Assembly: GCA_029939595.1 (NCBI GenBank)
Contig: JAOZSQ010000001.1
Coordinates: 347,669 to 411,668 of the forward strand
Length of the DNA: 64,000 nucleotides
DNA from: Thermoplasmatota archaeon
GTDB taxonomy: Archaea; Thermoplasmatota; E2; DHVEG-1
Direction: 5' to 3'
A program made the translations under genes and the position numbers. The stretch's first letter is position 1. Every line of letters starts with the position of its first letter. Under the pieces are notes generated by a model, which did no database searches, was not told the origin of the DNA, and saw nothing but the letters and a program-made list of their open reading frames with translations. Below, piece by piece: positions 12,887-46,639 of the stretch.

Positions 12887-12895
12887 GGAGATATT

Positions 12896-13207: not shown

Positions 13208-13214
13208 GAGGATT

Positions 13215-13508: not shown

Positions 13509-13515
13509 GAGAGTT

Positions 13516-13809: not shown

Positions 13810-13818
13810 GAGGATATT

Positions 13819-14064: not shown

Positions 14065-14074
14065 GAGAATACAA

Positions 14075-14377: not shown

Positions 14378-14386
14378 GAGACTGCT

Positions 14387-14623: not shown

Positions 14624-14625
14624 CA

Positions 14626-14918
14626 ATGATATCAAGAATGCCAATTTTATTGGAAGCCAAACGGTTAACAACAGTATCAAAGAGTCAGTTTAACAAGAAT
14701 GTTAAACTGTCTCAAAAATCTTCTGTTAAAAGAAAGAAAGCAAAGGCTAATGTGTTATATGCAAAATAAAATAAAACAAAGCTTAAAGCAGCAAAAAGAA
14801 TAAAAGATAGGTGTACTGATGGCGTGGGTCCAAATAAAAAGTGTGTTGTGCAAGGTGGCAAAATGAAAAAGATTGCATCCAATGTAGTGGTTAGAAACGT
14901 AAATACCAAGAAAAAGTG
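14626..14918 (+). pseudogene. Internal-protein-like paralog interrupted by an in-frame TAA at 14767
   Basis: MISRMPILLE|AKR leader. The frame continues after the TAA into CTDGVGPNKKCVVQGG, which matches the C-x9-C motif of neighbouring paralogs. Confidence 0.35.
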
Positions 14919-15179
14919 ATGATTATAGAAAAACTTAGTCCGGCTCAACGTCTAATCCCAACAGGAAAAAGACGAAATATGCAAAGAACTAAGGCAACTA
15001 TGCAGGTTAAAACATCTGTTTATAATGATCAGTATTATAAAACTAAGAAGAAGAAAATATCCACAAAACGGGCAAGGAAGCGTTTGATTTGTCCAGCCAA
15101 CAAAAAAGCAATCACTAATCCAAAAACTGGTGTCATTACTTGTGTGAATTTACATAAAGTAGCTAGAAAGGTATATTAG
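14919..15179 (+). CDS. Internal-protein-like basic protein
   Basis: MIIE|KLSP leader; Lys/Arg-rich. Confidence 0.35.
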   Translation: MIIEKLSPAQRLIPTGKRRNMQRTKATMQVKTSVYNDQYYKTKKKKISTKRARKRLICPANKKAITNPKTGVITCVNLHKVARKVY

Positions 15180-15186
15180 GAGTGTT

Positions 15187-15627
15187 ATGATTCACAGAAA
15201 AAGAGTATTAAAGGAAGCCACTTTTGATTATGACGATTGGGAAAAGTCAAGTAGAACTGGTGGTATGGGATCTAATAGATCAGGTTATAATAGGAATTCA
15301 CCACCAGGAGATGACAAATTATCAAAGTTTTTAGATTTGTTTAAATATGGTGTTTCTAATCAGGATGCTCTTGCTAAATTGGGTGATAGAACATCAAAGA
15401 TGTTCAGAACCAAGAAACAAAAAGAAAGGGATGGTAGTCAAGAAACTGAAATGAAGTTGAAAGACTGTTTTCAGGCATCCCATAAGGATTGTATACAGTT
15501 TGCAGAACGCAATGGGAAAATAGAAGATTATCAAAAGTGCTACGATTTATCTACTGCTAATTGTATAGGCAGATTTGATAAGAAATTAAGTAAGCATTAT
15601 TTGAAAAAAGCGAAATCTTTAAGATAG
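15187..15627 (+). CDS. Internal-protein-like protein
   Basis: MIHRKRVLKE|AT leader; 146 aa; RBS ttaggagtgttATG. Confidence 0.4.
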   Translation: MIHRKRVLKEATFDYDDWEKSSRTGGMGSNRSGYNRNSPPGDDKLSKFLDLFKYGVSNQDALAKLGDRTSKMFRTKKQKERDGSQETEMKLKDCFQASHKDCIQFAERNGKIEDYQKCYDLSTANCIGRFDKKLSKHYLKKAKSLR

Positions 15628-15633
15628 GATACT

Positions 15634-15948
15634 ATGATACGGTTAAATGAGAAATACAAGAAATCCATTGCCGGACCGAAGGGTTCTGCAAAGGGTATGA
15701 AAGCTAACATTACTAAAGAATTTAATAGAGCGTATGTTGCACAGGCTGAAATAGAAAGAAAAAATTGTAAAACGACAGTTGATAAAAACTATAAATGTTG
15801 TAAAAAACTTGCTGGTGGTAAGGAAGATACTAAATTTTGTGATTATGCTTATAAAAGAGTAAAAATGTCTTGTGCAGGTGCAATTAAGAAGGGTGAAGGA
15901 GCAAAGATGGGTTTTAATCCAACTAATTTTTGTAGTAAAAAAAAATAA
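15634..15948 (+). CDS. Internal-protein-like Cys-rich basic protein
   Basis: MIRLNE|KYKK leader; 7 Cys. Confidence 0.4.
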   Translation: MIRLNEKYKKSIAGPKGSAKGMKANITKEFNRAYVAQAEIERKNCKTTVDKNYKCCKKLAGGKEDTKFCDYAYKRVKMSCAGAIKKGEGAKMGFNPTNFCSKKK

Positions 15949-16037
15949 AGATATTTTATCAATTCTTAACAGTAAGTAAGTATTTGGATAATACAATATT
16001 ATAAAGCAAAAGCAAAATCATTAAGATAGGAGATATT

Positions 16038-22528: not shown

Positions 22529-22536
22529 TATTTATA
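22529..22536 (-). promoter_or_regulatory. T4-type late promoter motif TATAAATA on the minus strand
   Basis: The plus strand reads tatttata; on the minus strand this lies about 45 nt upstream of the 22482 start codon. Confidence 0.25.
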
Positions 22537-23701
22537 ACATTCCGATTAAATTTCTAATAATGAAAAAATGATCCTCAAATATTTGACGTGGTTCAAGTTC
22601 GCCTAACGGCATCCAAAACGCCCGTTTAGCGTCATCAGATCCTCTGACTTTTGGGAGAGATTCTTCGTCTTTTAGTTGTATTAAATATGCTTTTGTGATT
22701 GTTCTTCCTCTTACTGATCTATATGGATAATCATATGTCCTTTCTTCTTTTATACTGCCTTTTAACACAGGTATAGGTATTTTTAATCTGGTTTCTTCTC
22801 TGAGTTCCCGAATCATTGCATCTATAAGTTTTTCTTCTGGATTGAGAAATCCCCCAGGAAGTGCATATAAACTCTTTCCAGGATGTGATTTTCTTTCAAC
22901 CATCAATACATGACCCGATTGGATAACAACGGCATCTACTGTTTGAAAAATGGGTTTGAATTTATCTTTGAATTCGCCCTTGTAGTGTTGTACAAAATTG
23001 TATTCTTCTTTTATATTTCTATATTCATCGGTTTTTCTGAATTCCATCAAAAAATTGATTGACGAATTTGGAACCAACGAAGATACAAAATTTTTAAATG
23101 GTTCCGGTTCAGTATAAAAGTAAGGTCCTCTAATTGATGATCCGTTAATATTTTTGTGGCTGTTTAAAAGAATTAGTTCCCATTGTGGAAACGATTTGAG
23201 ATAAAATGAAGTTGGATCTTTATCATGCCCTATTATACCAATTTTAGCCATGTTGTACATTGTTTTGCCATGTTCTTTAATAATGTACTTAATCTTTTTT
23301 TGTACTTTCAGTATCCAAAGTACATTATTATAAATGTAATCATCTAAAGGGTTTATGATAATTGGTTTTCCATCAAATTCTTCAAATAACATTTGATGAA
23401 CTTCTTCGTATATGAAAGGGTTTCGTAGGAAGCTTCTAGCTAGATTGGATGATCCTATTAGAATAATTACTTGATTAGCCAATTTAAGGGCTTCTTTGAT
23501 GATATGAGCGTGTCCATTATGTAAAGGTTGGAAACGACCAATAAAAATTAAATAATCAAATTTTTTTTTCTTTTTTGGAAAGGTTTTTGATATAGATTCT
23601 ACATATGTTTTTGCGTCTTCATCTGTTAATGGCGCATCTGTTGGTGGTTCCATAAAAGCTATATCTTCATTTTGTGGTTGTTTTAATAATGCTGTTATCA
23701 T
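22532..23701 (-). CDS. nadM: Bifunctional NMN/NaMN adenylyltransferase (archaeal NadM type) fused to a Nudix hydrolase (NatV-like)
   Basis: HxGH motif in FIGRFQPLHNGHAHII. C-terminal Nudix box GGFLNPEEKLIDAMIRELREETRL. The ORF track begins at a TTG (23713); the ATG at 23701 is the likelier start. Confidence 0.75.
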   Translation of the reverse strand: MITALLKQPQNEDIAFMEPPTDAPLTDEDAKTYVESISKTFPKKKKKFDYLIFIGRFQPLHNGHAHIIKEALKLANQVIILIGSSNLARSFLRNPFIYEEVHQMLFEEFDGKPIIINPLDDYIYNNVLWILKVQKKIKYIIKEHGKTMYNMAKIGIIGHDKDPTSFYLKSFPQWELILLNSHKNINGSSIRGPYFYTEPEPFKNFVSSLVPNSSINFLMEFRKTDEYRNIKEEYNFVQHYKGEFKDKFKPIFQTVDAVVIQSGHVLMVERKSHPGKSLYALPGGFLNPEEKLIDAMIRELREETRLKIPIPVLKGSIKEERTYDYPYRSVRGRTITKAYLIQLKDEESLPKVRGSDDAKRAFWMPLGELEPRQIFEDHFFIIRNLIGML

Positions 23702-23719
23702 ATCTTCCTCCAAGATAAT

Positions 23720-23941
23720 TCAAGATAGGTCTTTTCCCTCTTTGAATTGTTGTTTGTATGATATACGAGCTTTTTCTTCAGCTTGTTCGTATATGTTCAT
23801 ATAATCGTTTTTAATATCATTATTGAAATTAGCTGTTTGTAATGCCTCTTTAAGAAATTCCTGGTAAGGTTTTGGCTGGATAAATTTTTTTAGTTGGGTG
23901 ATCATTTTAATCTCCATTAGTTGTTTTCCCATTATACACAT
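23720..23941 (-). CDS. Hypothetical small protein
   Basis: 73 aa. Confidence 0.25.
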   Translation of the reverse strand: MCIMGKQLMEIKMITQLKKFIQPKPYQEFLKEALQTANFNNDIKNDYMNIYEQAEEKARISYKQQFKEGKDLS

Positions 23942-23962
23942 AATTTAATGGGAAAGTCAACC

Positions 23963-24310
23963 TTAGACAAATTCCAACCCATTTATATTTTGAGCATATT
24001 CTTCAAAGGTTTCCCAAAAGTCATTAATAATATTTTCTCTGCTATTCATCCATGATATACCTTTTTTGAGGTAAAGAGTTAGTAATTGTGCGTTGCGTGA
24101 TGCACATTTGATATTATCAAATGGAATTATTACTCTTTCATCTTCAAAATAAAGTTTTTTAATACAAGGCAAAGAATTGACTATTAGTGATGGAATATCT
24201 TTAAAATCAACTTGGTGTTTGCCCTTTACAGGTACATTTTTTGTGATCAATATTATTTCATTATATGGAAATATATGATTGTCACTTATATGGTAAGTTG
24301 GATTTATCAT
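23963..24310 (-). CDS. Hypothetical protein
   Basis: 115 aa; overlaps the nadE stop. Confidence 0.3.
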   Translation of the reverse strand: MINPTYHISDNHIFPYNEIILITKNVPVKGKHQVDFKDIPSLIVNSLPCIKKLYFEDERVIIPFDNIKCASRNAQLLTLYLKKGISWMNSRENIINDFWETFEEYAQNINGLEFV

Positions 24311-25122
24311 AATTCTATAAATTTTTTGAAATGTTTAGGAATATTGCAGACCGGTATTGGTTGCATTTTGTGTTGATTGGCTTTTTGAAATTTTTCATAA
24401 ATTTTCAAAACTTCTACTTGTCTATTATCCATGTTCAAAAGATTGGGTTTGTTGACAGCCCAATTTATTGCCCATTCCAATTCTTTGTATGTGGCACCGA
24501 TTTGATTTTCATCGGACCGGTTATCTTCCCATAAACCATCAGTAGGAGTGGCTTCTATAATATCTCTGGCTATTCCCAAATACCGACCCAAACCCCACAC
24601 TTCTGATTTCATCAAATCCCCAATTGGGGATATATCAACTCCACCATCTCCATATTTGGTATAAAAACCAATTCCAAAGTCTTCTACTTTATTACCGGTT
24701 CCTACTACCAAGTTATTGTTAGAACCAGCTAATGCATATAGAGTCATCATTCTTAACCTGGATTGAGTATTTGCTAACGTCAAATTGTCCAATAAAGGCA
24801 TTTCATTTTTGAATGCTTGGAATGGTTCGGTTAGATTAATTTCAATGAATGTAACATGAGGATAATTATTTTGGAGCCATTTGATATGGTTTATGGCAGA
24901 GTTACGGGCTTGTTTTTGAGGTAGTTGCATATAATATTGTGTTGGCATCACAGCAAGGGTTGTTTCATAATCTGTTTTGGCGCATAATGTGGAAACAACA
25001 GCCGAGTCAATTCCACCGGATACACCAACTACAAATCCATTCATTTTGGAATTGTCACAATATGTTTTTAGCCAATCTACTATATGTTTGGTTATCAATT
25101 TATATTTCATTTTTCCTTTCAA
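24307..25122 (-). CDS. nadE: NH3-dependent NAD+ synthetase
   Basis: PP-loop GVSGGIDSAV; 271 aa, size typical of NadE. Confidence 0.8.
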   Translation of the reverse strand: MKGKMKYKLITKHIVDWLKTYCDNSKMNGFVVGVSGGIDSAVVSTLCAKTDYETTLAVMPTQYYMQLPQKQARNSAINHIKWLQNNYPHVTFIEINLTEPFQAFKNEMPLLDNLTLANTQSRLRMMTLYALAGSNNNLVVGTGNKVEDFGIGFYTKYGDGGVDISPIGDLMKSEVWGLGRYLGIARDIIEATPTDGLWEDNRSDENQIGATYKELEWAINWAVNKPNLLNMDNRQVEVLKIYEKFQKANQHKMQPIPVCNIPKHFKKFIEL

Positions 25123-25294
25123 AAAAATTGCATTTGTAATTTTTAGTGGAAAGAATTTGCATTAAAAATCCCTCATCTGAATGTCCACTAAAAAAAAGTC
25201 GTTTTTTACAGAGTCCTAATTTGATATATTCAACATCAACCGGTTTAATTTTTTTACAATGCCAATGTTTACAATTTTTACATGCTTTTTTCAT
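25100..25294 (-). CDS. Small Cys-rich (zinc-ribbon-like) protein
   Basis: CKNCKHWHC...C in 64 aa. Confidence 0.3.
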   Translation of the reverse strand: MKKACKNCKHWHCKKIKPVDVEYIKLGLCKKRLFFSGHSDEGFLMQILSTKNYKCNFFERKNEI

Positions 25295-25296
25295 GA

Positions 25297-26445
25297 TTAT
25301 TTTATATTGAAGGTTTCTTTTAGATAATTCAAAAAAGTCTCACTTTTGCACATTCCTTTTCCTGGAGAATCACTTACTTTGGCAACTGGATGATCATTAC
25401 ATTTTATCATTTTCATGACAATTTGTATGGGTTCCAATCCCACATCATTGGTAAGATTGGTTCCGATTCCAAAAGCAGTATTGGTGTATGCTTTGAAATC
25501 ATAGTACGTTTTAATGGCTGTTGGAATAGTTAAACCGTCACTGAATATCAGTGTTTTGGTTTTGGGATCAATGCCCATTTTTTCATAATGTAGCAATGCT
25601 TTGTTACCCCATTCCAAAGGATCACCAGAATCGTGTCGCATACCATCAAACAGTTTGGAAAAGTATAAATCAAAGTCTTTTAAAAATGCGTCAAACCCAA
25701 CTGTATCAGTTAATGCAATTCCAAGTCTACCTCTATATTCTTTTGCCCAAACATCTAATGCAGCTTTTTGGAAAACGTGTAATGGTACTAGTTGTTGGAA
25801 TGCTTGTAAATATTCATGAGCCATTGTACCGATAGGTGTTATCCCAAATCTCATAGCCAGATCAACATTACTGGTTCCGATTATGTTTTGTTTGTTTTCT
25901 TTTAGGAGATATTCTAAAACAGCTATTTGCCATTTTTTAGAATATCTCCTTCTGGTTCCAAATTCGGCTATTTTAATATCTTTGCCATGTTTTCTAAGAT
26001 ATTCGGACTTTTCTGCTAGATGGATGGCTCCACCGGTCAAGTTTTTGTTGTCAGAAAAATACACTTCATTGACAGTAGCCAGGATTGGGATTTCAAAAAG
26101 TGTGGTTTGGAGCCACGGACCTTTGACATTGATACAGAGATCGTTTTTATCACACCGAATATCAACATATTGTTCGGGTACAAAGCAAAAACCTCTTAAA
26201 AAGTCTACGTAGTCTTCGCTTAGAAATCCTAATTTCAAAAGGTAGTTGGCTTCCTCATAGGTTAAATTGAGGTTTTTGAGTTTATAAATTTCTTCGCTAA
26301 TCTTCTCCAAATATGGATTGAAGTCTATGTTGGGAGTTCGGCATTTGAATTCATATTCAACCTCTACACCAGCAAAATGATGAAGTACCACTTGTTGCAT
26401 GGTGAGTTTATAAAGGTCTGTATCAAGAAGACTTGTAATTATCAT
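25297..26445 (-). CDS. pncB: Nicotinate phosphoribosyltransferase
   Basis: N-terminus SLLDTDLYKLTMQQVVLHHF...EVEYEFKCR aligns with E. coli PncB [20 protein letters not shown]...AAEFRCR. 382 aa (PncB is about 400 aa; NadV is about 490 aa). Confidence 0.75.
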   Translation of the reverse strand: MIITSLLDTDLYKLTMQQVVLHHFAGVEVEYEFKCRTPNIDFNPYLEKISEEIYKLKNLNLTYEEANYLLKLGFLSEDYVDFLRGFCFVPEQYVDIRCDKNDLCINVKGPWLQTTLFEIPILATVNEVYFSDNKNLTGGAIHLAEKSEYLRKHGKDIKIAEFGTRRRYSKKWQIAVLEYLLKENKQNIIGTSNVDLAMRFGITPIGTMAHEYLQAFQQLVPLHVFQKAALDVWAKEYRGRLGIALTDTVGFDAFLKDFDLYFSKLFDGMRHDSGDPLEWGNKALLHYEKMGIDPKTKTLIFSDGLTIPTAIKTYYDFKAYTNTAFGIGTNLTNDVGLEPIQIVMKMIKCNDHPVAKVSDSPGKGMCKSETFLNYLKETFNIK

Positions 26446-26499: not shown

Positions 26500-27234
26500 T
26501 TAAAAATTGAACTGAGAAGGATCAATTTGTGTACTCGGTCCGCCACTTCCTAAACTGGAACTTTGACTAGAAATGCTCTTACTTACGAACCTCCCAAGTT
26601 TTGCCAGTTTCTCCGGTGTGGCATCTCCAATATCAACAAATTCATCAAATTGGACAGTGTTCTGGTAATCGTCCAAATCCTGTTTGTATTGGCCAGTATT
26701 GACACCAATCAGAATGTTGAGGATAGATTCCATGTTCTTGTCTTTTTTGGTAGACGTAATCGCTTGTTTCACATCATCCGGTTGCATGTCCCATACAGTT
26801 TCCCAACCATCTGTTATCACGAAGTTGATGGCATTAACATCAAAATCTTGATCCCGAAGGTCTTTGGCATAGGCGGCAACGGTTTTAACAGCGTCACAAG
26901 TTGCTCCAAACAGGTTGGTATACCCACCCGCTTTCATTCCATCATAATCGGTTAATTCAATATCACCAACCGGCATGAAACCATGTACTTCATTCAGTTC
27001 TTGGTTGAAATATCCAACCCTCAAAATGATATTTTCAGAGCGATCATCTTTTCTACAAGCAAGTACCACATTCTTAACTGCTTGGATCAATTGATCTTGA
27101 AAAGAACTTACACTGGAAGATTTATCGCACCAGAGATTCACAAGAGTTTGTTCGGCAGCACCCAAATCTTCGGGGCGCACGGCACTAAATGCGAAGTTAG
27201 AGCCTTTTACCATTTGTTTACTAAGTACAGGCAT
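26500..27234 (-). CDS. von Willebrand factor A (vWA) domain protein with intact MIDAS (TerY-like)
   Basis: DxSxS in LWCDKSSSV; GGYTNLFGA; FVITDGWET. Confidence 0.55.
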   Translation of the reverse strand: MPVLSKQMVKGSNFAFSAVRPEDLGAAEQTLVNLWCDKSSSVSSFQDQLIQAVKNVVLACRKDDRSENIILRVGYFNQELNEVHGFMPVGDIELTDYDGMKAGGYTNLFGATCDAVKTVAAYAKDLRDQDFDVNAINFVITDGWETVWDMQPDDVKQAITSTKKDKNMESILNILIGVNTGQYKQDLDDYQNTVQFDEFVDIGDATPEKLAKLGRFVSKSISSQSSSLGSGGPSTQIDPSQFNF

Positions 27235-27255
27235 AGTAGCCTCCTTTATATAAGT

Positions 27256-27702
27256 TTAAAAAAGTAGTTTTGGATGTAAACTGATGTAAATCATTGCCGG
27301 ACCGCTGGCTATGAATTCATCAGCATATCCAAATTCACTGATGGAACCGATTCGGTTATTGATAGCCATGATGGTATCCCATTCAAGAGTGAATGTTGAA
27401 TTTATTGTGAATACCATTACAACTTTTTTATAGTTGTTTAGAAAAACTCTCAGAGGGCGCAATTTCAAACCTTTGAGAATTTTTCTTATTTTTTTCTTCC
27501 GTCTATCAGATATATCCTTTTCACCAGCAGTAATGAATGATGCCATATATGATGAATATTCATCTTCCATTCCTGTTTGAACAGAAATCATTTGTTTTCT
27601 GAATTCTTTGGCGAATGTATTGCTATTATCCATCATTTTTTTAAGCATCTCTACAAGTTGCTTTTGTGGGAGATACGGAATTTCAAATTTGCGCTTTGAC
27701 AT
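27256..27702 (-). CDS. Hypothetical protein
   Basis: 148 aa; its stop lies in an AAGGAGG RBS for the downstream gene. Confidence 0.3.
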   Translation of the reverse strand: MSKRKFEIPYLPQKQLVEMLKKMMDNSNTFAKEFRKQMISVQTGMEDEYSSYMASFITAGEKDISDRRKKKIRKILKGLKLRPLRVFLNNYKKVVMVFTINSTFTLEWDTIMAINNRIGSISEFGYADEFIASGPAMIYISLHPKLLF

Positions 27703-27765
27703 TGTTACTCCATGTAAAGTCTACTGACTTTGGGTTTTTCTTATAAAGAAGTCAGTAGACTTGGG

Positions 27766-28611
27766 TTAAAATAAATAATCGGTTGTTCTGGCTACTTGCA
27801 TTCCACGATCCTTCATTTGCATTATAAAATCCGCTGCCATCGTTTCAAATCCAGGAACAGGAGAAGTTGCATCTTCCAATAACACAATTTTTTTCAATAC
27901 TTCATCACCAAATGCATCTACAATCTGTTCCAGAGTAGCCTTTAAACAATGACTGGAAGCCCAACCAGCCAATGGAACTAGATCGGCTTCTTCAATAGTT
28001 TCAATGGCTTCTTTGTTCATACCAGTTCCAGGGTCACTCGGAACAACAACTTCGGCTTGTAATCCACCATAATGTTCAGAAAGAAAGTTGCTTCCTTTTG
28101 TTAGGATATTCGTGACACCAAATCGGGTTGTTTCCCATTCGTCCAAAGCCTCCGCAATTGGAGTATATATACTAAATCCTGGTTGAGCGATTAAACAATG
28201 CTCCGGCCAGATGCAAAGCACATACTTGCTTTTTTGTTCAAGTTGCTCAGTATAGTAAAGTACCCATTCCAATAAAGATTTTGTTGATCCATCTGGCATT
28301 AATACAGGTACATTCGGATTGGTTGGCAACCATTCTTTTTTTCTTATGTCTTCATTGTATATCAGAGTGGGTTTGCCACCTTCAAATGGTATAGGATGTT
28401 TGCCACGTTTGTTCTTCCAAAAATGTGGATGGGCAATATGAATTCTATGGTGAGAATCCAATGTAACGTGAATATCATCTAACCGTTTGATATTATTTTT
28501 TATGTATTTTGCAAGGCGATTACCGTCTTCTTTTGCTCCTGCCACTGGCAGGTTTCCGTTTTCCAAAACAAAATCGTTTTGGGGGTCAATGATAACGAGT
28601 TGCATGTTCAT
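27766..28611 (-). CDS. pncA: Nicotinamidase (isochorismatase family, PncA-like)
   Basis: LVIIDPQNDF against E. coli PncA LLLVDLQNDF. IWPEHC against FWPDHC. Catalytic Cys context LAGWASSHCLKAT against GLATDYCVKFT. Confidence 0.75.
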   Translation of the reverse strand: MNMQLVIIDPQNDFVLENGNLPVAGAKEDGNRLAKYIKNNIKRLDDIHVTLDSHHRIHIAHPHFWKNKRGKHPIPFEGGKPTLIYNEDIRKKEWLPTNPNVPVLMPDGSTKSLLEWVLYYTEQLEQKSKYVLCIWPEHCLIAQPGFSIYTPIAEALDEWETTRFGVTNILTKGSNFLSEHYGGLQAEVVVPSDPGTGMNKEAIETIEEADLVPLAGWASSHCLKATLEQIVDAFGDEVLKKIVLLEDATSPVPGFETMAADFIMQMKDRGMQVARTTDYLF

Positions 28612-29447
28612 GTTGTCTCCTGGTCTAAATTAAGAAATGAAGCTCCAACAACTGTTAGATCGTCTAAATTGAGGATTCTCTCTTCAGCACAATCATTAAC
28701 AAATCGTTTGAATCTTCTTTGAATAAATTCTCCTTTGAAATTTTTAAAATTTAACATTTGTTTGAAAAATTCTGAATCATTCTTTTTATGATGATTCCCG
28801 CCCATTTGATGAAATGAATTAATTCCGTCACTTGCGAGAAGTAAAAATTCCAATTTATCTTCATCAAATTCTTGGGCAAAGGGTTCTTCTTTTGAAACAT
28901 TGTAAGTTATAGTATTAAGTTTAGGACCCAATGTTTGTATATGAACCTCTTTTGATAACCCATTTACTGCTCCCCATTTTTTTCTTTTTCCCTCATCTAC
29001 ATAGTATAAAGGATAGTATGGGTATTCACCACCAACCATTTTGATTGTAATTATACAAATTGTTGAACTTTCTTTCAATTTGAAAATAATGGAACCATCT
29101 CCAAAAATTATAATGTTTACTTTACCTTCATCGCTGTATGCTAGTAATAACGTGGCAAATAACGATTCGGAAGGAAGATCCATTAGTTTAGTAACTTCCA
29201 TTGATTTGTTCATTAATTCATCAATATATGTTTCATATCCTTCGTTTTTTATTAGATATGTTGAATATAAGCTGAAATGGGATAATATTCTTGCTCCCAT
29301 ATCGGAGTTTTTGGCACTGGAACAGCCATCACATAACGACATATAGAATTCTTCATAGTTATCTCCACCATAACAAAAATAGTCTTCGTTGTGTAGGTGT
29401 TGTTTGCCTTTATGAGTAAACCCATCAATGTGTATTTCTGGTTTCAT
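28608..29447 (-). CDS. PP2C-family Ser/Thr protein phosphatase
   Basis: LCDGCSSAKNSDMGARILSHFS and LLASDGINSF resemble PP2C metal-binding motifs. Confidence 0.5.
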   Translation of the reverse strand: MKPEIHIDGFTHKGKQHLHNEDYFCYGGDNYEEFYMSLCDGCSSAKNSDMGARILSHFSLYSTYLIKNEGYETYIDELMNKSMEVTKLMDLPSESLFATLLLAYSDEGKVNIIIFGDGSIIFKLKESSTICIITIKMVGGEYPYYPLYYVDEGKRKKWGAVNGLSKEVHIQTLGPKLNTITYNVSKEEPFAQEFDEDKLEFLLLASDGINSFHQMGGNHHKKNDSEFFKQMLNFKNFKGEFIQRRFKRFVNDCAEERILNLDDLTVVGASFLNLDQETT

Positions 29448-29607
29448 TTTGCCTGATAAGTTATTTGTTTTGGTTCAATAATTCTGGATTCTTTTGTTAT
29501 GTCTTTTGCTTCTTTGAGTCTTAATGACCAAAGAGGTTGTCTTAAATTATTAAGTACCCTTTTTTCTATTTTAGCTATTATTTTTATTTTGCGTTCTGGT
29601 TCAATTT

Positions 29608-29793
29608 TCATGTGGTCTCCTTATAACGATAATAAGCAAATGGAGTTCTTACTTGCCATTCTCCTGGATATTCTTTCATAACTTCAATGGCTAATTCAAC
29701 CGATTTATAATTACCATCTAAGCCACGTTTCAGTTCGGCTTCGGTTATTTGTTCTATCTCTTTTTCTCCAACAAATTGTCTTTCGTACATCAT
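29608..29793 (-). CDS. Hypothetical small protein
   Basis: 61 aa. Confidence 0.25.
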   Translation of the reverse strand: MMYERQFVGEKEIEQITEAELKRGLDGNYKSVELAIEVMKEYPGEWQVRTPFAYYRYKETT

Positions 29794-30002
29794 TTGCTCC
29801 AGAGTGGGAAGATTGAAAATATTAAACAGGATATTATAAATGTAATAATTACAATTTTTATTAGATAATTTTTAAAAGGTTTGTGAAATTTTTTATCAGG
29901 AAATATTTTGAAATTAAAGTTATATTCACTCACTGATAAAAAAATTGTAAAACCAGTAACTATTGTTATCATGATTATACTCATTATAATATAAAGAATC
30001 AT
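29790..30002 (-). CDS. Small membrane protein (2 predicted TM helices)
   Basis: Hydrophobic IIMSIIMITIVTGFTIFL and IVIITFIISCLIFSIF segments. Confidence 0.3.
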   Translation of the reverse strand: MILYIIMSIIMITIVTGFTIFLSVSEYNFNFKIFPDKKFHKPFKNYLIKIVIITFIISCLIFSIFPLWSK

Positions 30003-30004
30003 GA

Positions 30005-31726
30005 TTACCTCGTGGAAAATTGATATAAGATATTATCTTTGAAAACTAAAGCTTTTTCCTCATTACATGATAATGTTAAATCTCCATCTAATGTGTTATC
30101 AGTTACAACCCGTACTTTTTGATTTTCAGGTTGATTGGAAAACATTTCAACTTCATTGTTTTCATTGATTAATAAACCAATTCCTTGTCTAAGCACAGTG
30201 AAATTAATATCCATGAATCCAGGTATGGTTTTGTTTTGAATAGTGTAGCTTTCCATTCCTTTTGCGAACCGGATTATAAATCTTATATATTTTCTTCCTC
30301 TGTTGCCGATTAAAATGGCTACTTGATTCATATATTTTCCATAAAGAATTTTATAACCTTGTAATTCTTTTATTTGGAGGAACTGCCCTGCTAACCGTTT
30401 GCCAGTATTTTGAGGTATCAAAATATATGGTTTACCCAATATGTTTTGGTAAACCATTCCGTTCATTATTTGAGTCGCATAGGGCAGCACACCCCAACTT
30501 GTTCCATATGTTAAAATGGGTTTTCTTAACATTTTAATGTTGATTTCAACGATTCGGTCCTGCACTTTACCAATCAATGCGTTATCCGCAACATTTATTT
30601 GTTCAAATTTAGTAGTATAATCCACCTTTTCACCAGAACTTAATATTTTTGCAAAATTAGTATCAGCTTCTACTGGTTCAAGGGTTTTTGGGAGTATGAT
30701 TGTTTCCATTTGCCGATCAAATGCACTGAATGTACAATCGTCAATATAGATTACATAACCAGCTTTTACTACGTTTTTTCCCTGATGGGAAAAATGCCAT
30801 TTGATTGGATCTCGGTATTCTTTTATTTTTTCTAATTTAAAGAAGTTACTGGAAACCACTTTTTTGAAAATGGGAGCAACCACCTTTACAATACCAGCCA
30901 TATCGGGTGGTAATGTGCGTTTACCATGTTTAAAAATATCTTCTAACCATCCACGCATATTGGTGGGTATGTGATCCATCGTTCTCACACATGGAGGCAT
31001 TTTGACCCCTTTATCAAAGATAGATGCATTTTCCTTCATCCGTTTCAGATAAAGTTCTTGTTTGTCGTTATATTGTTTTGGATTATATTTGGGATGGGTT
31101 CCTTTAAATGGATGTTCTCCCAAGTACACTTTAGTTGCCAAGATTCCAAAAGAAAACCAATCACTTAGTTCGGTAAATTTTTTAGTTTGCATTACTTGTG
31201 GATCGGTCATCAATGGAGAATAGGCATCCGCAGGAAAATCTTTGGTTTGCCAAGAATCCACATCTAAAAAGTGAGGCAATGCCATATCAGCTAAACTAAT
31301 AAGGAAATTAACCTCATTCCAATCCACAATCAAACATTTTTTACTGTGGATGAATTCAAGAGTTATTGCGATTTCATCAACCAGTTTATTTGCTTGATCA
31401 ATTGTGAAATTATTGATTTTGCGAAAGGATTTGGTAAAGGTTTTACACAATGCTTCCATGTTGTCGGCATAGTGCATTGTGATACCTAATGGCGTTCCAC
31501 GTTTGTTAGTGAAAATATCAGTTGGGCGAGATATATTATCCCGTTTCAATTCCATTAATTGGTTGATTTTACCAATCGGAATCATTTTAGAAGGGTCAAT
31601 ATATATTTTGAAAACGGTTTTGTTTTTAACGCAGATATGGCCTTGACCGCCTGTGGTCTTGTAGTTAGCGTCATTCAGCTTGATGGGCTGTTTGTCAAGA
31701 TATACTGTGGTGGGTTTGAAATTCAT
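30005..31726 (-). CDS. Eukaryotic-like Ser/Thr protein kinase
   Basis: Gly-rich loop TTGGQGHICV. Catalytic-loop-like IHSKKCLIVDWNEVNF. Subdomain IX-like DWFSFGILATKVYLGEHPF. Confidence 0.5.
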   Translation of the reverse strand: MNFKPTTVYLDKQPIKLNDANYKTTGGQGHICVKNKTVFKIYIDPSKMIPIGKINQLMELKRDNISRPTDIFTNKRGTPLGITMHYADNMEALCKTFTKSFRKINNFTIDQANKLVDEIAITLEFIHSKKCLIVDWNEVNFLISLADMALPHFLDVDSWQTKDFPADAYSPLMTDPQVMQTKKFTELSDWFSFGILATKVYLGEHPFKGTHPKYNPKQYNDKQELYLKRMKENASIFDKGVKMPPCVRTMDHIPTNMRGWLEDIFKHGKRTLPPDMAGIVKVVAPIFKKVVSSNFFKLEKIKEYRDPIKWHFSHQGKNVVKAGYVIYIDDCTFSAFDRQMETIILPKTLEPVEADTNFAKILSSGEKVDYTTKFEQINVADNALIGKVQDRIVEINIKMLRKPILTYGTSWGVLPYATQIMNGMVYQNILGKPYILIPQNTGKRLAGQFLQIKELQGYKILYGKYMNQVAILIGNRGRKYIRFIIRFAKGMESYTIQNKTIPGFMDINFTVLRQGIGLLINENNEVEMFSNQPENQKVRVVTDNTLDGDLTLSCNEEKALVFKDNILYQFSTR

Positions 31727-31834
31727 ATCCGATATGCTCCATATCGTAATTTTGTTTTGGGTCTTTCCCCAAAAATTTTGTTGTCTCTTTTATTTATATT
31801 ATAATTTTCTAAAAAGGTTTCTGTCAAGAAAAAA

Positions 31835-32149
31835 TTATAAAACATAATTATGAATCAACCAACCAAGTCCTAATGATATAGCGGGAACCAAACCCCCATA
31901 TACAATTAATTTTAGAATAGTTACAGTTTTATCATCATCTTTTGGTTCTGAAATATGAGGGGCAAGTAATCCCATAATAATTACCATTCCTAATGCCGAA
32001 CCCATTGTGATTTGAGCAAAATTTAAAGGTGCCAGTGTTAAAAACCAACCCCAATGTTTTGTAATCACAAAGGCTTTCCAACACATTATAGTAATTCCTG
32101 CTACAATTAAAAAGCCGACCCATAATATTCCGCCTAAAAATTTATCCAT
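31835..32149 (-). CDS. Small integral membrane protein (3 TM helices)
   Basis: 104 aa, highly hydrophobic. Confidence 0.35.
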   Translation of the reverse strand: MDKFLGGILWVGFLIVAGITIMCWKAFVITKHWGWFLTLAPLNFAQITMGSALGMVIIMGLLAPHISEPKDDDKTVTILKLIVYGGLVPAISLGLGWLIHNYVL

Positions 32150-32272
32150 CTTTACTCCAAAACCAATTAAATAAGGTTAGACTATCTTTTTGTGGTGGGA
32201 AACTTTCTCTTTCTTTTGTTTTATATGAAACAACCCATTTTCCATCGCAATTTTCATTGGGTTCACAATTTG

Positions 32273-33718
32273 TTACCCAACATTCTGTTCCATTTTCTCG
32301 TGTATATTTTTCTCCTTTTCGGGGTAAGTTTTGCATTGTTCAATTTCCAGTGATTTGTTATATAATTTTGTTGCGTATTCGTTTAACAATTCTAATTTAA
32401 TTAATTTTGATGTCCATCGTTCAGGAATATTATCAATCCCATAATAAGCTCCGGCTAACATGCCATAAATAGCACCAACTGTATCAGCGTCATCACCCAA
32501 GTTTACAGCCAGAATACAACCTTCTTCAAAGGAATTGGAATTGTAAAATGCCCATAAAGCAGCTTCCATACTACTTGAAACTCTTCCCCAAGCACAAATA
32601 TCAGGAGGTCTTTTTTCTTTAAAAGATCCGTTGGCTATTTCCAATATTTTTGAATGGAGATTGGTATATCCTGTTTTCCAGTAATTATAGGGACCATATA
32701 ATGGAGAAAGAAGTTCTTCTTTTGGTATTTCATCAACGGCTCCCCATATTAAACCACCATAATATTCACATGCGCCAATACATTCGTGGGCTTGATGGGT
32801 GGTTTTTGAACTTAATCCTGAATTATGTATTGCTTTTTTGTGGTCAGTCCAATAGAAGAGCGGAACGGGTGCCAAACGCATTAAAGAACCATTACCTGCT
32901 TTTTCAGGATCGGCAGATCCACAATAAGCTTTTTTTTCTTTTTGAAATTTGAATTCATAGATAGCATCTCTTGTGGTCATGCCAACATCAAAACATTTTC
33001 CTATGCTACTTAGGAAGCCTTCAAAATGCTATCTGGAATAGTTTCTTATTTGGTCAAGAGGATCAAACTCGCCTTTATTTATAAGGCTTTCTGTGAGGCA
33101 TAACGCAAGCGAGGTATCGTCTGTCCATTGTCCAGGTGAAACATTGAATTCGCCTCCACTGGTCATATCAGAGATAAAAGGAAAGGTTCCTGGGCTTCTG
33201 AACTCAACAGGTGCGCCGAGTGCATCACCACATGCCAATCCGATTATACTGCCTTTGAATCTATCAATTGTTTTCATATTTTTAATATCATTTGTATTCC
33301 GGCTGCTATTAGTTTCATATATTTCCTTTAGTATTTGGGTTCTTTTAGAGGGAAGACCTTTTGTTTTTTGCATACATTGTCTTTTTCCTTTGGAATAGTC
33401 AATATTTTCATAGTCATCAAATTGTTCTGCGGTTAGGTCAACAATTTCATCATCTGGCCATTTTGCAAACCAATGGTTTGCATCATAACCAGGAATTTTC
33501 AAACAAAAAGGTTTTGAACCGGCTGGTGCAATGTGTTCAATTAGAAATTCAGTAACCACATAACAATAATTTTTAGTTGGATTTTTATCGGACCAATCTT
33601 TTCTTAATTTGGGTTTTAAATTTCTTCTGCCCAATCTTCTGAGAGCATGATATAACACATCTTTTTTGATACCCGCTTTTTCAAACATTTTGTTTGATTC
33701 TTCAGGAGATATTTTCAT
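32273..33718 (-). pseudogene. ADP-ribosylglycohydrolase (ARH/DraG family) interrupted by an in-frame TAG at 33029-33031
   Basis: N-terminal half carries [20 protein letters not shown]...[18 protein letters not shown]-terminal half carries GNGSLMR and GDDADTVGAIYGMLAGAYYG. Both halves are in the same frame with 16 sense codons between the TAG and the next Met. The TAG sits where ARH proteins have a Trp (RYxxW). Confidence 0.65.
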
Positions 33719-36357
33719 GCCGGTTCATATTGTTTGATATCATCTTGGAATTGCTTTAGTAAATCTTCGGCTTCTTCTTTATTTTTTAAAGATTTAATAA
33801 ATTCCGATTTTTTACCTCCATCAACCAGAGATTTTTCAAATATTGCAGATGCGAATATACAGTACACCATTTCTGAACCGTTTCCTGTTCCATAAGTTTC
33901 ATCATCATCCATTTCTAGTTTAGTGGGATTTCTTGAATCCGCATTAATTGCAAAACAACCATCGCTTTGAACAAGATTGGTGGAGAGTTTTACATCTTTG
34001 ACTATTCTTCCTAATGCACTATTTGCTTTTTCGTTATCTCTTTCAAAATTATCGTGCATTATCTTTTGGACTCCATGATGGGCACTGTTATATATTTGAA
34101 CAGGTCCTCTCATTTCACAAATGGATAACTTACGCAAATCGGGACGATCAGTATACAATCCCAATTTAGGATGCACTTTTTCAAAAGTTATTTCTTCTTC
34201 TGGTTTATATTTTATTTTTGTTTTTGGTGCAAATTCTATATTTAAACGTGGGAGTCGTATTCTTTTTTTGGTTCCTTTTACGTTTATATATAAAAAAGTA
34301 TCGGGTATTCTGTGAGCAGCCTTCAGTAATCTCCATTTATTCAAATTGACAGGATTGAAAATGGGTTTGGCACCGTGTTGTGTATCTTTTGGATTGATTA
34401 ATTCCTGTGGAGGATTAATTATCATTTTCCAAATATCAACATTTTTATATTTTGGAATATCTTCTTTTATATCCAGTGTTGTAGAGTCACCCTTTTCAAT
34501 AATCAAGGATTGTTCACGTTTAACTGCTGCCATTCCTTTGATGCTGTTGGTGTCGGTTACTTCTGGAATTAGATATTCTTCGGTGTTGCGTTTTCTTAGA
34601 ATAAAATATATAACCTTTTTCATGTCGGTTGAATATTTGGTGTCGGAGTATGTGATCTTACCATCTTTAATTTCTATACCTTCATTTATAATTTCATTTC
34701 CATTTTCATCTTTAAATGTTAAGGTATCACATTTATCGGTAAGTAATGATTCAATCCAACCCTTTTTGGTTCGTATAAAAGCTATAATATCTGCTTTCAT
34801 AGTGTTGTCTGTTTCTACGTTGAATTCTTTTCCTTTGAATTTGCTTTTCCTTGTTACCATTACATTTTTTGCATATTCATATAATTTAGATTTATCAGAT
34901 TTGTTCAACGCAGCAAAACAGCGGGTTATAAAAGCATTTGCTGTGAGTCTATGTTCATTTTTTAAACTGAACATAGAATTGGTATCCAAGAATGGGGGAT
35001 GAGCGTCATTTTTTTCGTTTTTATATTTAACATCAATGATTGTTAATTTAAGAAAAAATTTTGCTCGTCTGTGGTCAATTTCAAGGTCATCACCGATTTC
35101 TTTTTCCAAACCATATAACAGAGTTGAAAATTCTGATAGGTTTTCTGCAAAGGTGTTAATTGGCTCTTTTTCATATCGGTATGCACCTTTGCTGATGGTT
35201 TTAGCCAAATATGGAGAATATATTGCTCCTCCTTGATAATTTTTGACATAGTAATCAGTATCTTCTTTGTCATCATCTTTTTTTACTCTATCTGACTTAT
35301 AAACTTTTACCCCCCTATCATTTTCTGTTTTGGATAATTTTCCTTTTTTTTCAAGATATGAATACATATTTTCATAGTTTTTATGTTTTTCTAATATCTT
35401 TTTTAGAAGTTCGTGGGTTTTGGCAGCTTCTATCTCTTTTTGATATGAAGCAAATTCGGTATAGCTTGGATCAATCATATAACCACCAATCAATGTTTTG
35501 ACCACGAATTCATCTTTTGTTTTTTCGTTAGTCATATCTATGTCTGCTAGTACATCAAATACTTGAATAGTTCTTTGACTCATAGTTTTGTAGTTTTCAT
35601 TTTCATCTAATTTCCCTATATTATGCTTCCGGCGCAATCCGCAATTTATTTCCATAATTTCTTTGATTACATCATGGCATTGAATTATGTCAATTCCAAG
35701 TAATTGCCTGTTTGTGGGTTCTGAATGACCGCATATTGAAAAGTAATGGGATGCGGGATTGTAGAAACAATCTTGTGTCATAAGATATTCCATATATTCG
35801 TTAATTATTCTTATTTCATTGGCATAATAGTTTGTTTCTTCCAATGTTTTTGTTTTTAGTTCCTCTTGTAATGAAGCTATTATTTTACGCATTTCTTCGG
35901 GTGTTGGGGCTTTGAATTTATCGGGTCGTTCACTTCCATTAAAGGGAGGAAAAAAGTCACAAATTTCTTGATATATTCCACTGTTGGATTGAGATAACGC
36001 ATAACCGGCATCTTTTGCTCCTTGACCAAAACAAGATATTTTTCCAAACGAACTTTTATATGGTTTCAACATGGAAATTGCTTCAAGTGTGTTGGGTTTG
36101 CCGCCAGTGTGATATATTCCGAGCCAGTATGAATTGTCTCGTAAGTGGTATAATGAAATTTGTATTTTGAGTTTTGAGTTTTTGTTTTTGTAATCTACAT
36201 TATTGTGATAAATTTCACGAATGTACGTTCTGATTGCTCTTTCTTGAACTTCTCCAGTTTTTTCAGTAATAGGTGAACTGTGTTGTTCTGAAGTCAATTC
36301 CCTTAATGAATTATGATCTTCTTCGGGAAAATGAGTTAATGTAATTTCTTCAATCAT
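33715..36357 (-). CDS. Large hypothetical protein with an N-terminal GHKL-type ATPase-like region
   Basis: 880 aa. N-box-like [10 protein letters not shown]1-like [11 protein letters not shown]2-like [16 protein letters not shown]. The rest is unrecognised. Confidence 0.3.
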
Positions 36358-36405
36358 TTTTATTTTTTAGTTAGTTTGTTTGCTTCATTTTGGAGTTAAA
36401 ATTTA

Positions 36406-36435
36406 ATAGTAAATCATTTTTGAGAATTCTGTCAA
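36406..36435 (-). promoter_or_regulatory. Near-consensus sigma70-type promoter for the leftward accessory operon
   Basis: The minus strand reads TTGACA-N18-TACTAT, about 50 nt upstream of the 36357 start. A GC-rich inverted repeat gtacgc..gcgtac (36444-36467) lies just upstream, after the pspA stop. Confidence 0.4.
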
Positions 36436-36474
36436 GTTTTATTTTCAAGTACGCCGGAGTACGCCAGCGTACAT

Positions 36475-37206
36475 TTATGCTGCTTCTTCAACAGTTTCAG
36501 TATCCATGCCGATCTGTTTCTTCAACTTCTCCAGTTCGGATTCTACTTCGCTATCACCAATTTGAAGAACATTATCAATTTCATCTTCCAGAGTCTTGGC
36601 TTGTGTTTGTTGACCCATTTCTTCATACGCCAAAGCAAGCACTTCTTCACTTTCCACACGCCGTTTCATTTCTTCCATCATTGATATCGTATCATTGAAA
36701 TCAATTTGTGCGATTTGTTTATTAACTTCTTTTGATACTGCTGCTGCTTTTTGACGAGCGGTTAATTCAGCTAATTCCCTTTCGTATTTCTTGATTTCTT
36801 CTTTTAATGTTGCAATGGTTTGTTCAACCTTTTTAACACTATCTATCCGGCTCCCAACGAGGGTTTCAGATAATTGAAGGTTCTTTTTGTAATCATTTTG
36901 TTTTTGGAGGGCTGCTGTTGCTAACCGAGTGGCTTCTTTTTCATCAATTTTGCCATCTTTTGCCGATTGAAGTAACCCAATCGCCTTGTTGCCCCAAACA
37001 CCAACTAATTCTTTATTAGCCTTTACATCTCTGTTAGCCTTTATTTGGAGGGCTTTGGTTTCTGCATAGGCGTTTAAAGCCAGTTCAAGTTTCTTTTTTA
37101 GTTCACGAATTCCCTCGGCTATCAATTTGATAGGATCTTCAATTTTGCTTATGAGTTCGTGGCTTTGCGATTTAAAAATGCGCCCGATAGATTTAAAAAA
37201 TCCCAT
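36475..37206 (-). CDS. pspA: PspA/IM30/Vipp1-family membrane-stress protein
   Basis: MGFFKSIGRIFKSQSHELISKIEDPIKLIAEGIRELKKKL aligns with E. coli PspA [40 protein letters not shown]. Coiled-coil throughout. Confidence 0.8.
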   Translation of the reverse strand: MGFFKSIGRIFKSQSHELISKIEDPIKLIAEGIRELKKKLELALNAYAETKALQIKANRDVKANKELVGVWGNKAIGLLQSAKDGKIDEKEATRLATAALQKQNDYKKNLQLSETLVGSRIDSVKKVEQTIATLKEEIKKYERELAELTARQKAAAVSKEVNKQIAQIDFNDTISMMEEMKRRVESEEVLALAYEEMGQQTQAKTLEDEIDNVLQIGDSEVESELEKLKKQIGMDTETVEEAA

Positions 37207-37310
37207 TTTATTCTCCTATTTAAAGATGTCAGCCAAATTAGTAGTCGGTTTTTCCAGGGTGATCTTGTTGATTATGAAATCTTTCCATATTTCATTTTGT
37301 TCTTCGTTTG

Positions 37311-37766
37311 TCATAATGAATCCAATATCGCTTTTTTTATTCGGTCACGAGACCAATCGTTTTTCCAATCAGCTAATCTTCCTAATCTATCAGCACTTTT
37401 TAGCTTTGTCAAATCTTTTTTTAAACTTTCTTTTGCTTCTGGAATTTCCTTGTCCATGTGATGTTTAATCAACCAAAATGTTTCATCTGATATAATATAA
37501 GAGAAAGGTAATAATAATTTAACTGATGCATCAGAATGGCCTTTGGTTTGAATTGTTTTACCTAAGTCATGTAAGAGGGTAGCTAAAATTAGATCGCAAT
37601 TCTGAGGCCATTTTGATACTGCTATGGCAAATGATTGAATAGAATGTGAATAGGCGCATATTTCTGGATGAAGATTGGGGTCCTGTTTTACCCATTTCAA
37701 TTCCTCAATCATATTTAAAAATATGTCCAGATAAGGTTCCACTATTTTGGGGTCTTTAATTTTCAT
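37311..37766 (-). CDS. HD-domain phosphohydrolase
   Basis: H...HD motif: HSIQSFAIAV ... LLHDLGK. Confidence 0.55.
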   Translation of the reverse strand: MKIKDPKIVEPYLDIFLNMIEELKWVKQDPNLHPEICAYSHSIQSFAIAVSKWPQNCDLILATLLHDLGKTIQTKGHSDASVKLLLPFSYIISDETFWLIKHHMDKEIPEAKESLKKDLTKLKSADRLGRLADWKNDWSRDRIKKAILDSL

Positions 37767-43443: not shown

Positions 43444-43643
43444 AAATCTCCTTAAAAAATAGCCTAATTATCATATCCTACTGATCATTTTCTATTTTGT
43501 CAAGTTCTTTTTTAAACGCAGGATTTTTATGTTTATTTATATTTTTATCTTGGGTTACTCCTTCTTCACTGAGAGTAAATTTGGTATCAATTTTCTTGAC
43601 AATTATCTTAAAGGCGGATTTATATTTGATTGGATTGATCAGG

Positions 43644-46546: not shown

Positions 46547-46639
46547 TTCTATCCCTAAATTTTTTTGCCATATAAATATACTACTATGACTACTATTAAT
46601 AAATATATTATTTCTATAATTGATAATGTCAAAAACATT

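Follow-up and report, generated by a model that had tools for sequence, protein, structure and literature searches.

A gene for a protein of the PspA/IM30 family resides in a phage, in the middle of a 64,000-nucleotide stretch of contig JAOZSQ010000001.1 (GenBank assembly GCA_029939595.1, deposited as Thermoplasmatota archaeon; positions 347,669 to 411,668 of the forward strand) that is hereafter called the window. This pspA gene is an open reading frame (ORF) of 243 amino acids (aa) on the minus strand that runs from ATG to TAA and spans exactly positions 36475-37206 of the window. As judged from its sequence, the product is a full-length PspA/IM30 protein, and it is complete and probably functional. 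Its most likely role would be to keep the host membrane energised through a long infection, a proposal that has about an even chance of being right.

A PspA/Vipp1 (IM30) homolog had been proposed in an initial annotation made from the DNA letters, on the basis of an N-terminal resemblance to Escherichia coli PspA. Profile search with the product recovers PF04012 (PspA_IM30) at 115.8 bits (E=2.8e-33), far over the curated cut-off of 33.9 bits, and the match covers residues 3-231 of the protein and positions 2-217 of the 220 of the profile. All other Pfam matches are at noise level, and Snf7 (ESCRT-III, PF03357) is not among them at E<=1. The N-terminal alignment MG.F.....I......L..K.EDP.KL was reproduced and was found to run over the entire protein, since BLASTP aligns residues 1-237 with residues 1-222 of E. 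coli K-12 PspA (from NC_000913) at 28% identity (E=7e-13). In the same way, all nine matches of a PDB sequence search are Vipp1, PspA or Synechocystis sll0617 chains, most of them near full length, the best being Vipp1 (6zvr, 7o3w, 8qbw; E=2e-5). The matched entries are the Vipp1/PspA ESCRT-III ring and rod structures. Neither of the two outcomes named beforehand as fatal to the annotation, a profile search that fails or a homology confined to the first 40 residues, occurred; by sequence comparison, family membership is far above chance and is not limited to those residues.

The predicted fold agrees with this assignment. An AlphaFold2 model built from an 8-sequence alignment has a mean pLDDT (predicted local distance difference test) of 76.7, mostly over 89 in the hairpin, and its helices (residues 4-12, 15-83, 89-166, 170-213 and 219-231) reproduce the alpha0-alpha5 layout of the family. 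In the model a long alpha1/alpha2-3 hairpin is followed by alpha4 and alpha5, as expected of an ESCRT-III-like fold. When it was compared with the PDB using Foldseek, the 14 top matches were all Vipp1/PspA assemblies (best E=1.7e-4; TM, the template modelling score, up to 0.60/0.67), and generic coiled coils ranked only below them. The global TM-score is merely 0.45-0.60, because the arrangement of the helices in the model differs from that of the assembled states.

Several positions that are invariant in the two alignments used here (A1, the tip-insert subfamily described below, and A2, which extends to PspA and Vipp1) are kept in the phage protein, namely M1-G2, K21, E23-D24-P25 and K27. The N-terminal helix alpha0 is among the strongly amphipathic, cationic ones of its subfamily. 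Its 11-residue hydrophobic moment of 0.86 is the maximum of the whole protein (residues 2-13), compared with a mean of 0.70 +/- 0.09 in the cellular homologues, and it bears three aromatic residues and a net charge of +3, which is found in only 4 of the 81 cellular homologues. At the tip of the hairpin, nine additional residues correspond to a 9-column gap in Vipp1, in E. coli PspA and in a Firmicute-type PspA (L009), and three of them, G85, E91 and A92, are invariant throughout the subfamily in A1. At the other end, both the alignments and the model show that the Vipp1-type alpha6 extension is absent, the phage protein stopping 12 residues past alpha5.

These traits also indicate which kind of PspA the phage encodes. 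From its sequence it is not a proteobacterial PspA equivalog, as it scores 53.5 bits against the 242.95 required by TIGR02977 and 38.2 bits against the 336 required by NF007974. It is instead, again by alignment, a member of a PspA subfamily that carries the 9-residue hairpin-tip insert. When every GTDB species was represented by a single genome, a tblastn scan located at least 513 genome loci of tip-insert relatives at 36-44% identity. Most carriers are marine Bacteroidota (Fulvivirga, Carboxylicivirga, Roseivirgaceae, Cryomorphaceae and others), and further ones belong to SAR324, Deltaproteobacteria, Calditrichia and Aquifex. The cellular members resemble the phage copy in being full-length and collinear with it, in the insert with G85/E91/A92, in the VNKQ.A..D..T block, in their similar length and in their acidic tail. 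They differ from it in alpha0, where the phage protein shows R6S, F8G, G11F, E14Q and D20S and is more cationic. The two cellular homologues whose full neighbourhood was inspected both lie in ordinary chromosomal contexts; no neighbouring gene is common to the phage locus and the cellular loci, and no other gene of the window recurs beside cellular pspA copies.

By comparison with the better known members of the family, E. coli PspA (encoded in pspFABCDE) shares with the phage protein the family, the helix layout and the N-terminal MG.F...EDP.KL, but it does not have the tip insert. Vipp1/IM30 of cyanobacteria and chloroplasts has the same ESCRT-III-like hairpin, yet it is only about 23% identical to the phage protein, and of the two proteins Vipp1 alone has alpha6 and the phage protein alone has the tip insert.

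The phage copy is divergent within its subfamily. In a neighbour-joining tree of the phage protein and 81 cellular copies, its terminal branch is the longest at 0.332; the cellular branches have a median of 0.084, and none exceeds 0.224. Its identity to these copies is 36-42%, whereas their median identity among themselves is 58%. Of the columns conserved to at least 90% among the 81 homologues it nevertheless matches 70%, and of the variable columns 24%. The GC (guanine plus cytosine) content of pspA is 0.381, and 0.311 at third codon positions, which is within about 1.2 standard deviations of the genes of the window (0.344 +/- 0.031 and 0.261 +/- 0.063, respectively). The long branch, the retained conserved columns and the window-like composition together indicate that the gene is old, resident and under constraint, and not a recent acquisition.

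That the gene is phage-encoded, as had been claimed initially, is borne out by its surroundings. The island in which it lies is flanked on one side by genes for the T4-type portal gp20 (PF07230, E=7e-111), the gp21 prohead protease (PF03420, E=3e-25) and the gp23 capsid protein (PF07068, E=1.5e-81), and on the other side by tail-fibre genes. Composition is homogeneous, with an even GC content throughout the window and a correlation of 0.87 between the codon usage of structural and island genes. The identical protein was found on a 426,929-bp contig and in the independent Logan assembly of run SRR21545386. The gp23 capsid protein is only 28-34% identical to its nearest counterparts in deposited T4-like phages, and neither IMG/VR nor INPHARED contains a close relative of it. 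The 427-kb contig and the divergent capsid protein indicate a T4-like phage of very large size and deep divergence.

Besides pspA, the island contains genes for an NMNAT-NUDIX protein, an NAD synthase, an NAPRTase, a PP2C phosphatase, a Ser/Thr kinase, an ADP-ribosylglycohydrolase, an 880-aa ORFan and an HD-domain protein. Two hybrid histidine kinases, a receiver-only response regulator, a Cache-domain protein and an endonuclease I complete this list. The positions of pspA, of the parts of its product and of its surroundings are given in Table 1.

Table 1. Positions in the window of the pspA gene, of the parts of its product and of neighbouring features (aa, residues of the phage PspA; AF2, AlphaFold2 model).
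Feature	Position	Strand	Basis
pspA-like coding sequence	36475..37206	-	ORF list; Pfam PF04012 full length; PDB Vipp1/PspA sequence matches; fold matches
Shine-Dalgarno AGGAG, 6 nt 5' of ATG	37213..37217	-	direct sequence reading
Helix alpha0, aa 2-21, GFFKSIGRIFKSQSHELISK; N-terminal, amphipathic, cationic, predicted membrane-binding	37144..37203	-	hydrophobic moment, charge
E23-D24-P25 motif at alpha0/alpha1 junction	37132..37140	-	invariant in PspA, Vipp1 and tip-insert subfamily (alignments A1, A2)
Helix alpha1, aa 26-83, first arm of ESCRT-III-like hairpin	36958..37131	-	AF2 helix 15-83, pLDDT 80-97; aligns to Vipp1/PspA alpha1
Nine-residue hairpin-tip insert, aa 84-92, DGKIDEKEA; subfamily signature	36931..36957	-	alignments; AF2 loop at 84-88
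Helix alpha2/3, aa 89-166, second hairpin arm	36709..36942	-	AF2 pLDDT mostly 89-97, about 70 at C-terminal end; aligns to Vipp1
Helix alpha4 region, aa 170-213	36568..36699	-	AF2 pLDDT 47-73; contains conserved VNKQ.A..D..T...M.E.MK block
Helix alpha5, aa 219-231, conserved L..LK	36514..36552	-	AF2; L225, L228, K229 invariant in A1
Short acidic C-terminal tail, aa 232-243, IGMDTETVEEAA	36478..36513	-	alignments; AF2 predicts disorder
Upstream neighbour, 151-aa HD-domain phosphohydrolase, 104 nt from pspA	37311..37766	-	Pfam PF01966, E=2.4e-7
Candidate pspA promoter TTGACA-17-TAGATT with upstream TG, 178 nt before ATG, inside 3' end of HD gene	37384..37412	-	consensus scans; weak
Short GC hairpin GTACG-CTGG-CGTAC (coding strand), starting 3 nt past stop codon	36459..36472	-	scan and direct reading
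Sigma70-like TTGACA-18-TACTAT, 10/12, facing 880-aa ORF, 49 nt from its ATG	36406..36435	-	
Downstream neighbour, 880-aa ORFan	33715..36357	-	
T4-type portal, gp21 protease and gp23 capsid genes, within block 0-18 kb	4.5-10.2 kb	+	Pfam
Accessory-gene island containing pspA, between structural and tail blocks	18.5-48.6 kb	-	
Tail-fibre genes, within tail/tail-fibre block from 49 kb	52.6-60.8 kb	+	

The HD-domain protein encoded upstream of pspA has no match in a PDB sequence search, and the 880-aa ORF downstream has no relative in Pfam, PHROGs or IMG/VR and matches only itself among 5.8 billion proteins. Between the HD gene and pspA, the sole consensus-like promoter of the 104-nt gap overlaps the pspA ATG, so that pspA would be expressed from the candidate site within the HD gene or, possibly, be co-transcribed with it. 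The hairpin that follows pspA is not a canonical terminator, as no T-run is present on the coding strand.

The initial annotation had also placed pspA next to the strongest sigma70-like promoter region of the island, and this part did not hold. The 33-42.5 kb region is not enriched in sigma70-like sites (38, against 43.5 +/- 7 in shuffles), and the only 12/12 site of the window (31827-31798) stands before the kinase gene, 4.6 kb from pspA. The good sigma70-like site beside pspA, the 10/12 one, lies 3' of the pspA stop codon and faces the next gene instead. Both belong to a set of four intergenic TTGACA-N16-18-TAnnnT sites on the minus strand (31798-31827, 36406-36435, 43475-43503 and 46605-46632) that lie 32-72 nt before island genes. 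Shine-Dalgarno-like 4-mers precede 33 of the 65 genes of the window, compared with a background of 8%. These sites and the frequency of these motifs suggest that the host uses canonical sigma70 promoters and Shine-Dalgarno-led translation. Neither the T4 late-promoter TATAAATA (14, against 10.4 expected) nor the Bacteroidota -7 motif TANNTTTG (87, against 103) was found to be enriched in the window.

The window presents other particularities. Within the island, the NMNAT-NUDIX fusion, the NAD synthase and the NAPRTase form an NAD synthesis and salvage set (22532-26445, minus strand) that recalls phage NAD-reconstitution counter-defence pathways. The signalling repertoire is unusually rich for a phage (28608-31726, 38152-41754 and 45842-47050, minus strand): it includes the Ser/Thr kinase with PP2C, the two hybrid histidine kinases, one of them with PAS and two transmembrane segments, the receiver-only regulator and the Cache protein, and none of these proteins has a DNA-binding output domain. 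The kinase gene is flanked on the same strand by two small membrane-protein ORFs, one of 70 aa with two predicted transmembrane segments (29790-30002) and one of 104 aa with three (31835-32149), whose predicted topology is holin-like.

The ADP-ribosylglycohydrolase gene (32273-33718, minus strand) is interrupted by a single in-frame TAG. The part at 33029-33718 encodes a YunG domain and positions 1-77 of the ADP-ribosylglycohydrolase profile, the part at 32273-32980 encodes positions 96-287 in the same frame, and reading through would join ...NYSR, across the stop codon, to HFEGFLSSIGKCFDVGMTT. Elsewhere in the window TAG is a normal stop codon (16 of 65 genes), and the interruption is likely a pseudogene, a sequencing error or a local read-through, not genome-wide recoding. 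In the structural block, the stretch at 11200-16000 (plus strand) contains only short ORFs of 91-146 aa in code 11; stop-codon recoding was considered there and rejected, as reassigning TAG, TGA or TAA yields no clearly longer ORFs. Finally, a protein with a TnsA-like endonuclease N-terminal domain (PF08722, E=9e-16) is encoded amid the structural genes (2965-3450, plus strand) and may be a homing or mobile endonuclease.

PspA proteins were also searched for in other phages. Megablast of the 24 kb around pspA against deposited phage genomes gave no match. When three PspA queries were compared by tblastn with 50,697 deposited phage records, the phage PspA had no match, and Nostoc Vipp1 and E. 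coli PspA matched only two faecal scaffolds labelled 'UNVERIFIED Bacteriophage sp.'. As tblastn is insensitive below about 30% identity (E. coli PspA missed the window's own gene), these negatives cover moderately close relatives only. One of the two scaffolds, MT835668, was rejected as a source of a phage PspA, for it is a bacterial chromosome with tRNA synthetase, PcrA, TrmA and restriction-modification genes. PHROGs contains no family that matches PspA or either of its neighbours, the HD protein and the 880-aa ORF; in the BFVD viral structures there was no match at E<=1e-3 and only generic coiled coils were returned; and no close PspA relative turned up when JGI metagenomes were scanned. 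In the literature, ORF54 of the Ralstonia jumbo phage RsoM2USA is listed against 'Phage shock protein A [Lewinella]' (PMC8504454). It was discarded as a precedent, having no PF04012 match and a BLASTP E=2.3 with the window PspA.

On the contrary, a scan of IMG/VR seeded with classical PspAs yielded eight loci. Alignment A2 was rejected as a seed because it is too diverse, and L002, a separate IMG/VR match to a 123-aa protein that shares only its MGFFKSIGR start, was false. The most informative locus is L092, a contig of 66.8 kb and 30% GC that encodes a 225-aa PspA 7 kb from a gp23 gene, together with homologues of the window kinase (33%), of its PP2C (30%) and of two unknown island genes (43-44%). 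Relative to the window, identity is only 20% for the capsid protein and only 23% for the PspA of L092, which does not have the tip insert. The order and orientation of the genes differ between L092 (2731-10678) and the window (26500-37206). Taken together, this suggests that an accessory gene set has been exchanged among, or kept by, large T4-like phages.

A second contig, L101 (185.6 kb), has a PspA that is 40% identical to that of L092 and is preceded by the same pair of genes, and it also encodes divergent RpoB/RpoC-like proteins. The PspAs of L092 and L101 are 23-26% identical to the window PspA and belong to a different subfamily. In both (L092 8413-9789, L101 7846-9280), pspA is preceded by genes for a Gly/Ser-rich membrane protein with N- and C-terminal transmembrane segments and for a protein of about 215 aa, both of which are absent from the window. 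These two conserved upstream genes could encode PspA partners. A DUF4178 identity was considered for a protein upstream of these PspAs and dropped, the comparison with a DUF4178 protein not being significant.

The remaining loci, L094/L095 and L096-L099, are contigs of 77-361 kb with actinobacterial-type PspAs near GH25 lysin-like genes. In the 263-361-kb contigs, at L095 5918-7501 and L097 11158-14229, PspA lies 1-3 kb from GH25+SLH and GH25+LGFP+NlpC/P60 genes. Neighbouring proteins in L094-L099 have no INPHARED match and almost no PHROG match, so these contigs are putative phages only.

A published case is that of the Jug phages, which are T4-like, 360-402 kb in size, infect Bacteroides/Phocaeicola hosts and encode RpoC; there, a 'pspA-like gene' beside terD is reported to be transcribed as an operon in the gut and is mentioned without further analysis (Sci Adv 2026, PMC12880540). 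Compared by description only, the Jug phages and the phage of the window are alike in being huge, T4-like and carriers of a PspA-type gene, but the Jug gene adjoins terD and no TerD was found in the window. PspA in large phages is thus rare and essentially unstudied, it has precedents, and at least two PspA subfamilies are involved.

The capacity of PspA/IM30 proteins to seal membranes, and its dependence on alpha0, are established for the family. The initial suggestion that a phage copy could stabilise the host membrane or delay lysis appears reasonable. The proposed role is assembled from knowledge of PspA/Vipp1 proteins around the observed identity and genomic setting of the gene. In the infected cell, phage transcripts would lead to production of the phage PspA, whose cationic, amphipathic alpha0 would attach to the host cytoplasmic membrane where it is stressed or leaky. 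There, the alpha1/alpha2-3 hairpins would seal proton leaks by assembling into carpets, rings or rods of the ESCRT-III type, and the sealed leaks would allow the proton-motive force and the ATP supply to be upheld during an infection that is presumably long. Since a T4-like phage would shut off host genes, the Psp response of the host itself could not be induced and the phage PspA would substitute for it.

The phage PspA would moreover act alone, without partner proteins, because the window yielded no PspB, PspC, PspF or LiaI-type partner. The neighbours of pspA are the HD gene, the ORFan, histidine kinases and similar genes, with no linked pspF or pspBC. When the window was searched by tblastn with E. 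coli PspF, PspB, PspC and PspD, no match fell below E=0.39; profile scans did not extend to small ORFs, and the same run also missed pspA itself, which makes it weak for short or divergent proteins.

An intact ORF with a good ribosome-binding site, the retained conserved residues, the amphipathic alpha0, the phage setting and the recurrence of PspA in other large phages speak for a role in membrane maintenance. Several points weigh against it. The support is sequence- and model-based, coming from family, fold and context, and the confidence of the model is low at alpha0 (pLDDT about 43) and in the C-terminal third. Of the 73 positions conserved in the subfamily 22 are altered, five of them in alpha0, and the activity could be altered as a result. 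There is no close orthologue in any other sampled genome, so that selection is not measurable. The pspA promoter is a candidate only, and sites of its kind are not enriched over shuffles. In addition, the promoter and Shine-Dalgarno pattern suggests a poor fit to a Bacteroidota host, despite the relatives of pspA being mostly from Bacteroidota.

The preservation of the proton-motive force by PspA also opens another reading, as it is established that holins trigger on the collapse of this force. By upholding the membrane potential, the phage PspA might block premature holin triggering and lengthen the latent period. The proximity of PspA genes to GH25 lysin-type genes in L095 and L097 would be in line with such a control of the lysis clock, as would the two small membrane-protein ORFs of the pspA island. 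However, no endolysin or recognisable holin is found next to pspA in the window, L094-L099 are phages only putatively, and the PspA and lysin genes there are convergent and do not form an operon. It is therefore considered unlikely that timing of lysis is the main function.

Just as unlikely is a function in counter-defence, in which PspA would repair or block the membrane damage caused by abortive-infection effectors, for instance pore-forming or depolarising ones (CBASS, retrons, RexAB-like systems, gasdermins), and let the infection finish. The island is indeed rich in candidate functions of host takeover and counter-defence, such as the NAD salvage and synthesis set, the ADP-ribosylglycohydrolase and the Ser/Thr kinase with PP2C, and the PspA gene of L092 adjoins a phosphoribosyltransferase-like gene (QRPTase_N) near the homologues of the window kinase and PP2C. 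This case is nonetheless one of gene context, the gene set common to L092 and the window is not collinear, and no known anti-defence family was matched, in searches that did not include the PADLOC library.

The nearest solved structures are membrane-remodelling Vipp1 rings and tubes, and T4-type heads are known to begin their assembly on the inner membrane. A Vipp1-like activity that builds or shapes internal membranes, vesicles or membrane-attached phage assembly sites could be imagined on these grounds. It is very improbable, given that the phage protein has no Vipp1-specific C-terminal alpha6 and that the window showed no genes for lipid synthesis or for other membrane biogenesis.

The divergence of alpha0 and of the 22 conserved positions around a preserved hairpin core could also suit a poisoning subunit. 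Such a protein would co-assemble with the host PspA, or titrate PspA or its partners, and so blunt or redirect the envelope-stress response, E. coli PspA being known to regulate PspF as well. Yet the phage protein, at 53.5 bits against 242.95, is no equivalog of the proteobacterial PspA that binds PspF; PspF, PspB and PspC are undetected in the window by tblastn, and with only about 40% identity to any cellular relative co-assembly is uncertain. A decoy of this kind is hardly credible.

It is as hard to credit that the gene has no role for the phage, being a cellular passenger or part of an assembly artefact that joins cellular and phage DNA: many island genes are cell-like (hybrid histidine kinases, NAD enzymes), the ADP-ribosylglycohydrolase is broken by its TAG and the exact gene occurs in one sample only, but the ORF is intact and has retained conserved residues on a long branch, its composition matches the phage, structural genes stand on both sides and an independent T4-like IMG/VR contig has PspA together with homologues of four island genes.

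A phage pspA-like gene had thus been noted once before in the literature (PMC12880540), and what is new is a divergent member of a well-known family, met in a setting where it is uncommon, whose annotation is solid and whose function is the proposed one of membrane maintenance. A broader and more tentative reading, which is unlikely at present, is that several unrelated lineages of large phages have independently captured different PspA subfamilies as a general membrane-maintenance factor, to be set against abortive-infection effectors and early holin firing. These lineages would be the phage of the window, the Jug-like group of L092 and L101 and possibly two groups of the 77-361-kb IMG/VR contigs. 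If this were true, a bacterial ESCRT-III-type protein would be serving a virus.

PspA/IM30 proteins are bacterial relatives of ESCRT-III and owe their name to the response that phage proteins provoke. A phage with its own PspA inverts this usual picture, and it suggests that energisation of the host membrane is a limit for very large phages with long cycles. Should the proposed role be confirmed, membrane repair would join the host functions that large phages supply for themselves, and the window PspA would offer a self-contained, partner-free protein for structural and mechanistic work. It would also provide a direct route to test whether phages counter abortive-infection defences that target the membrane.

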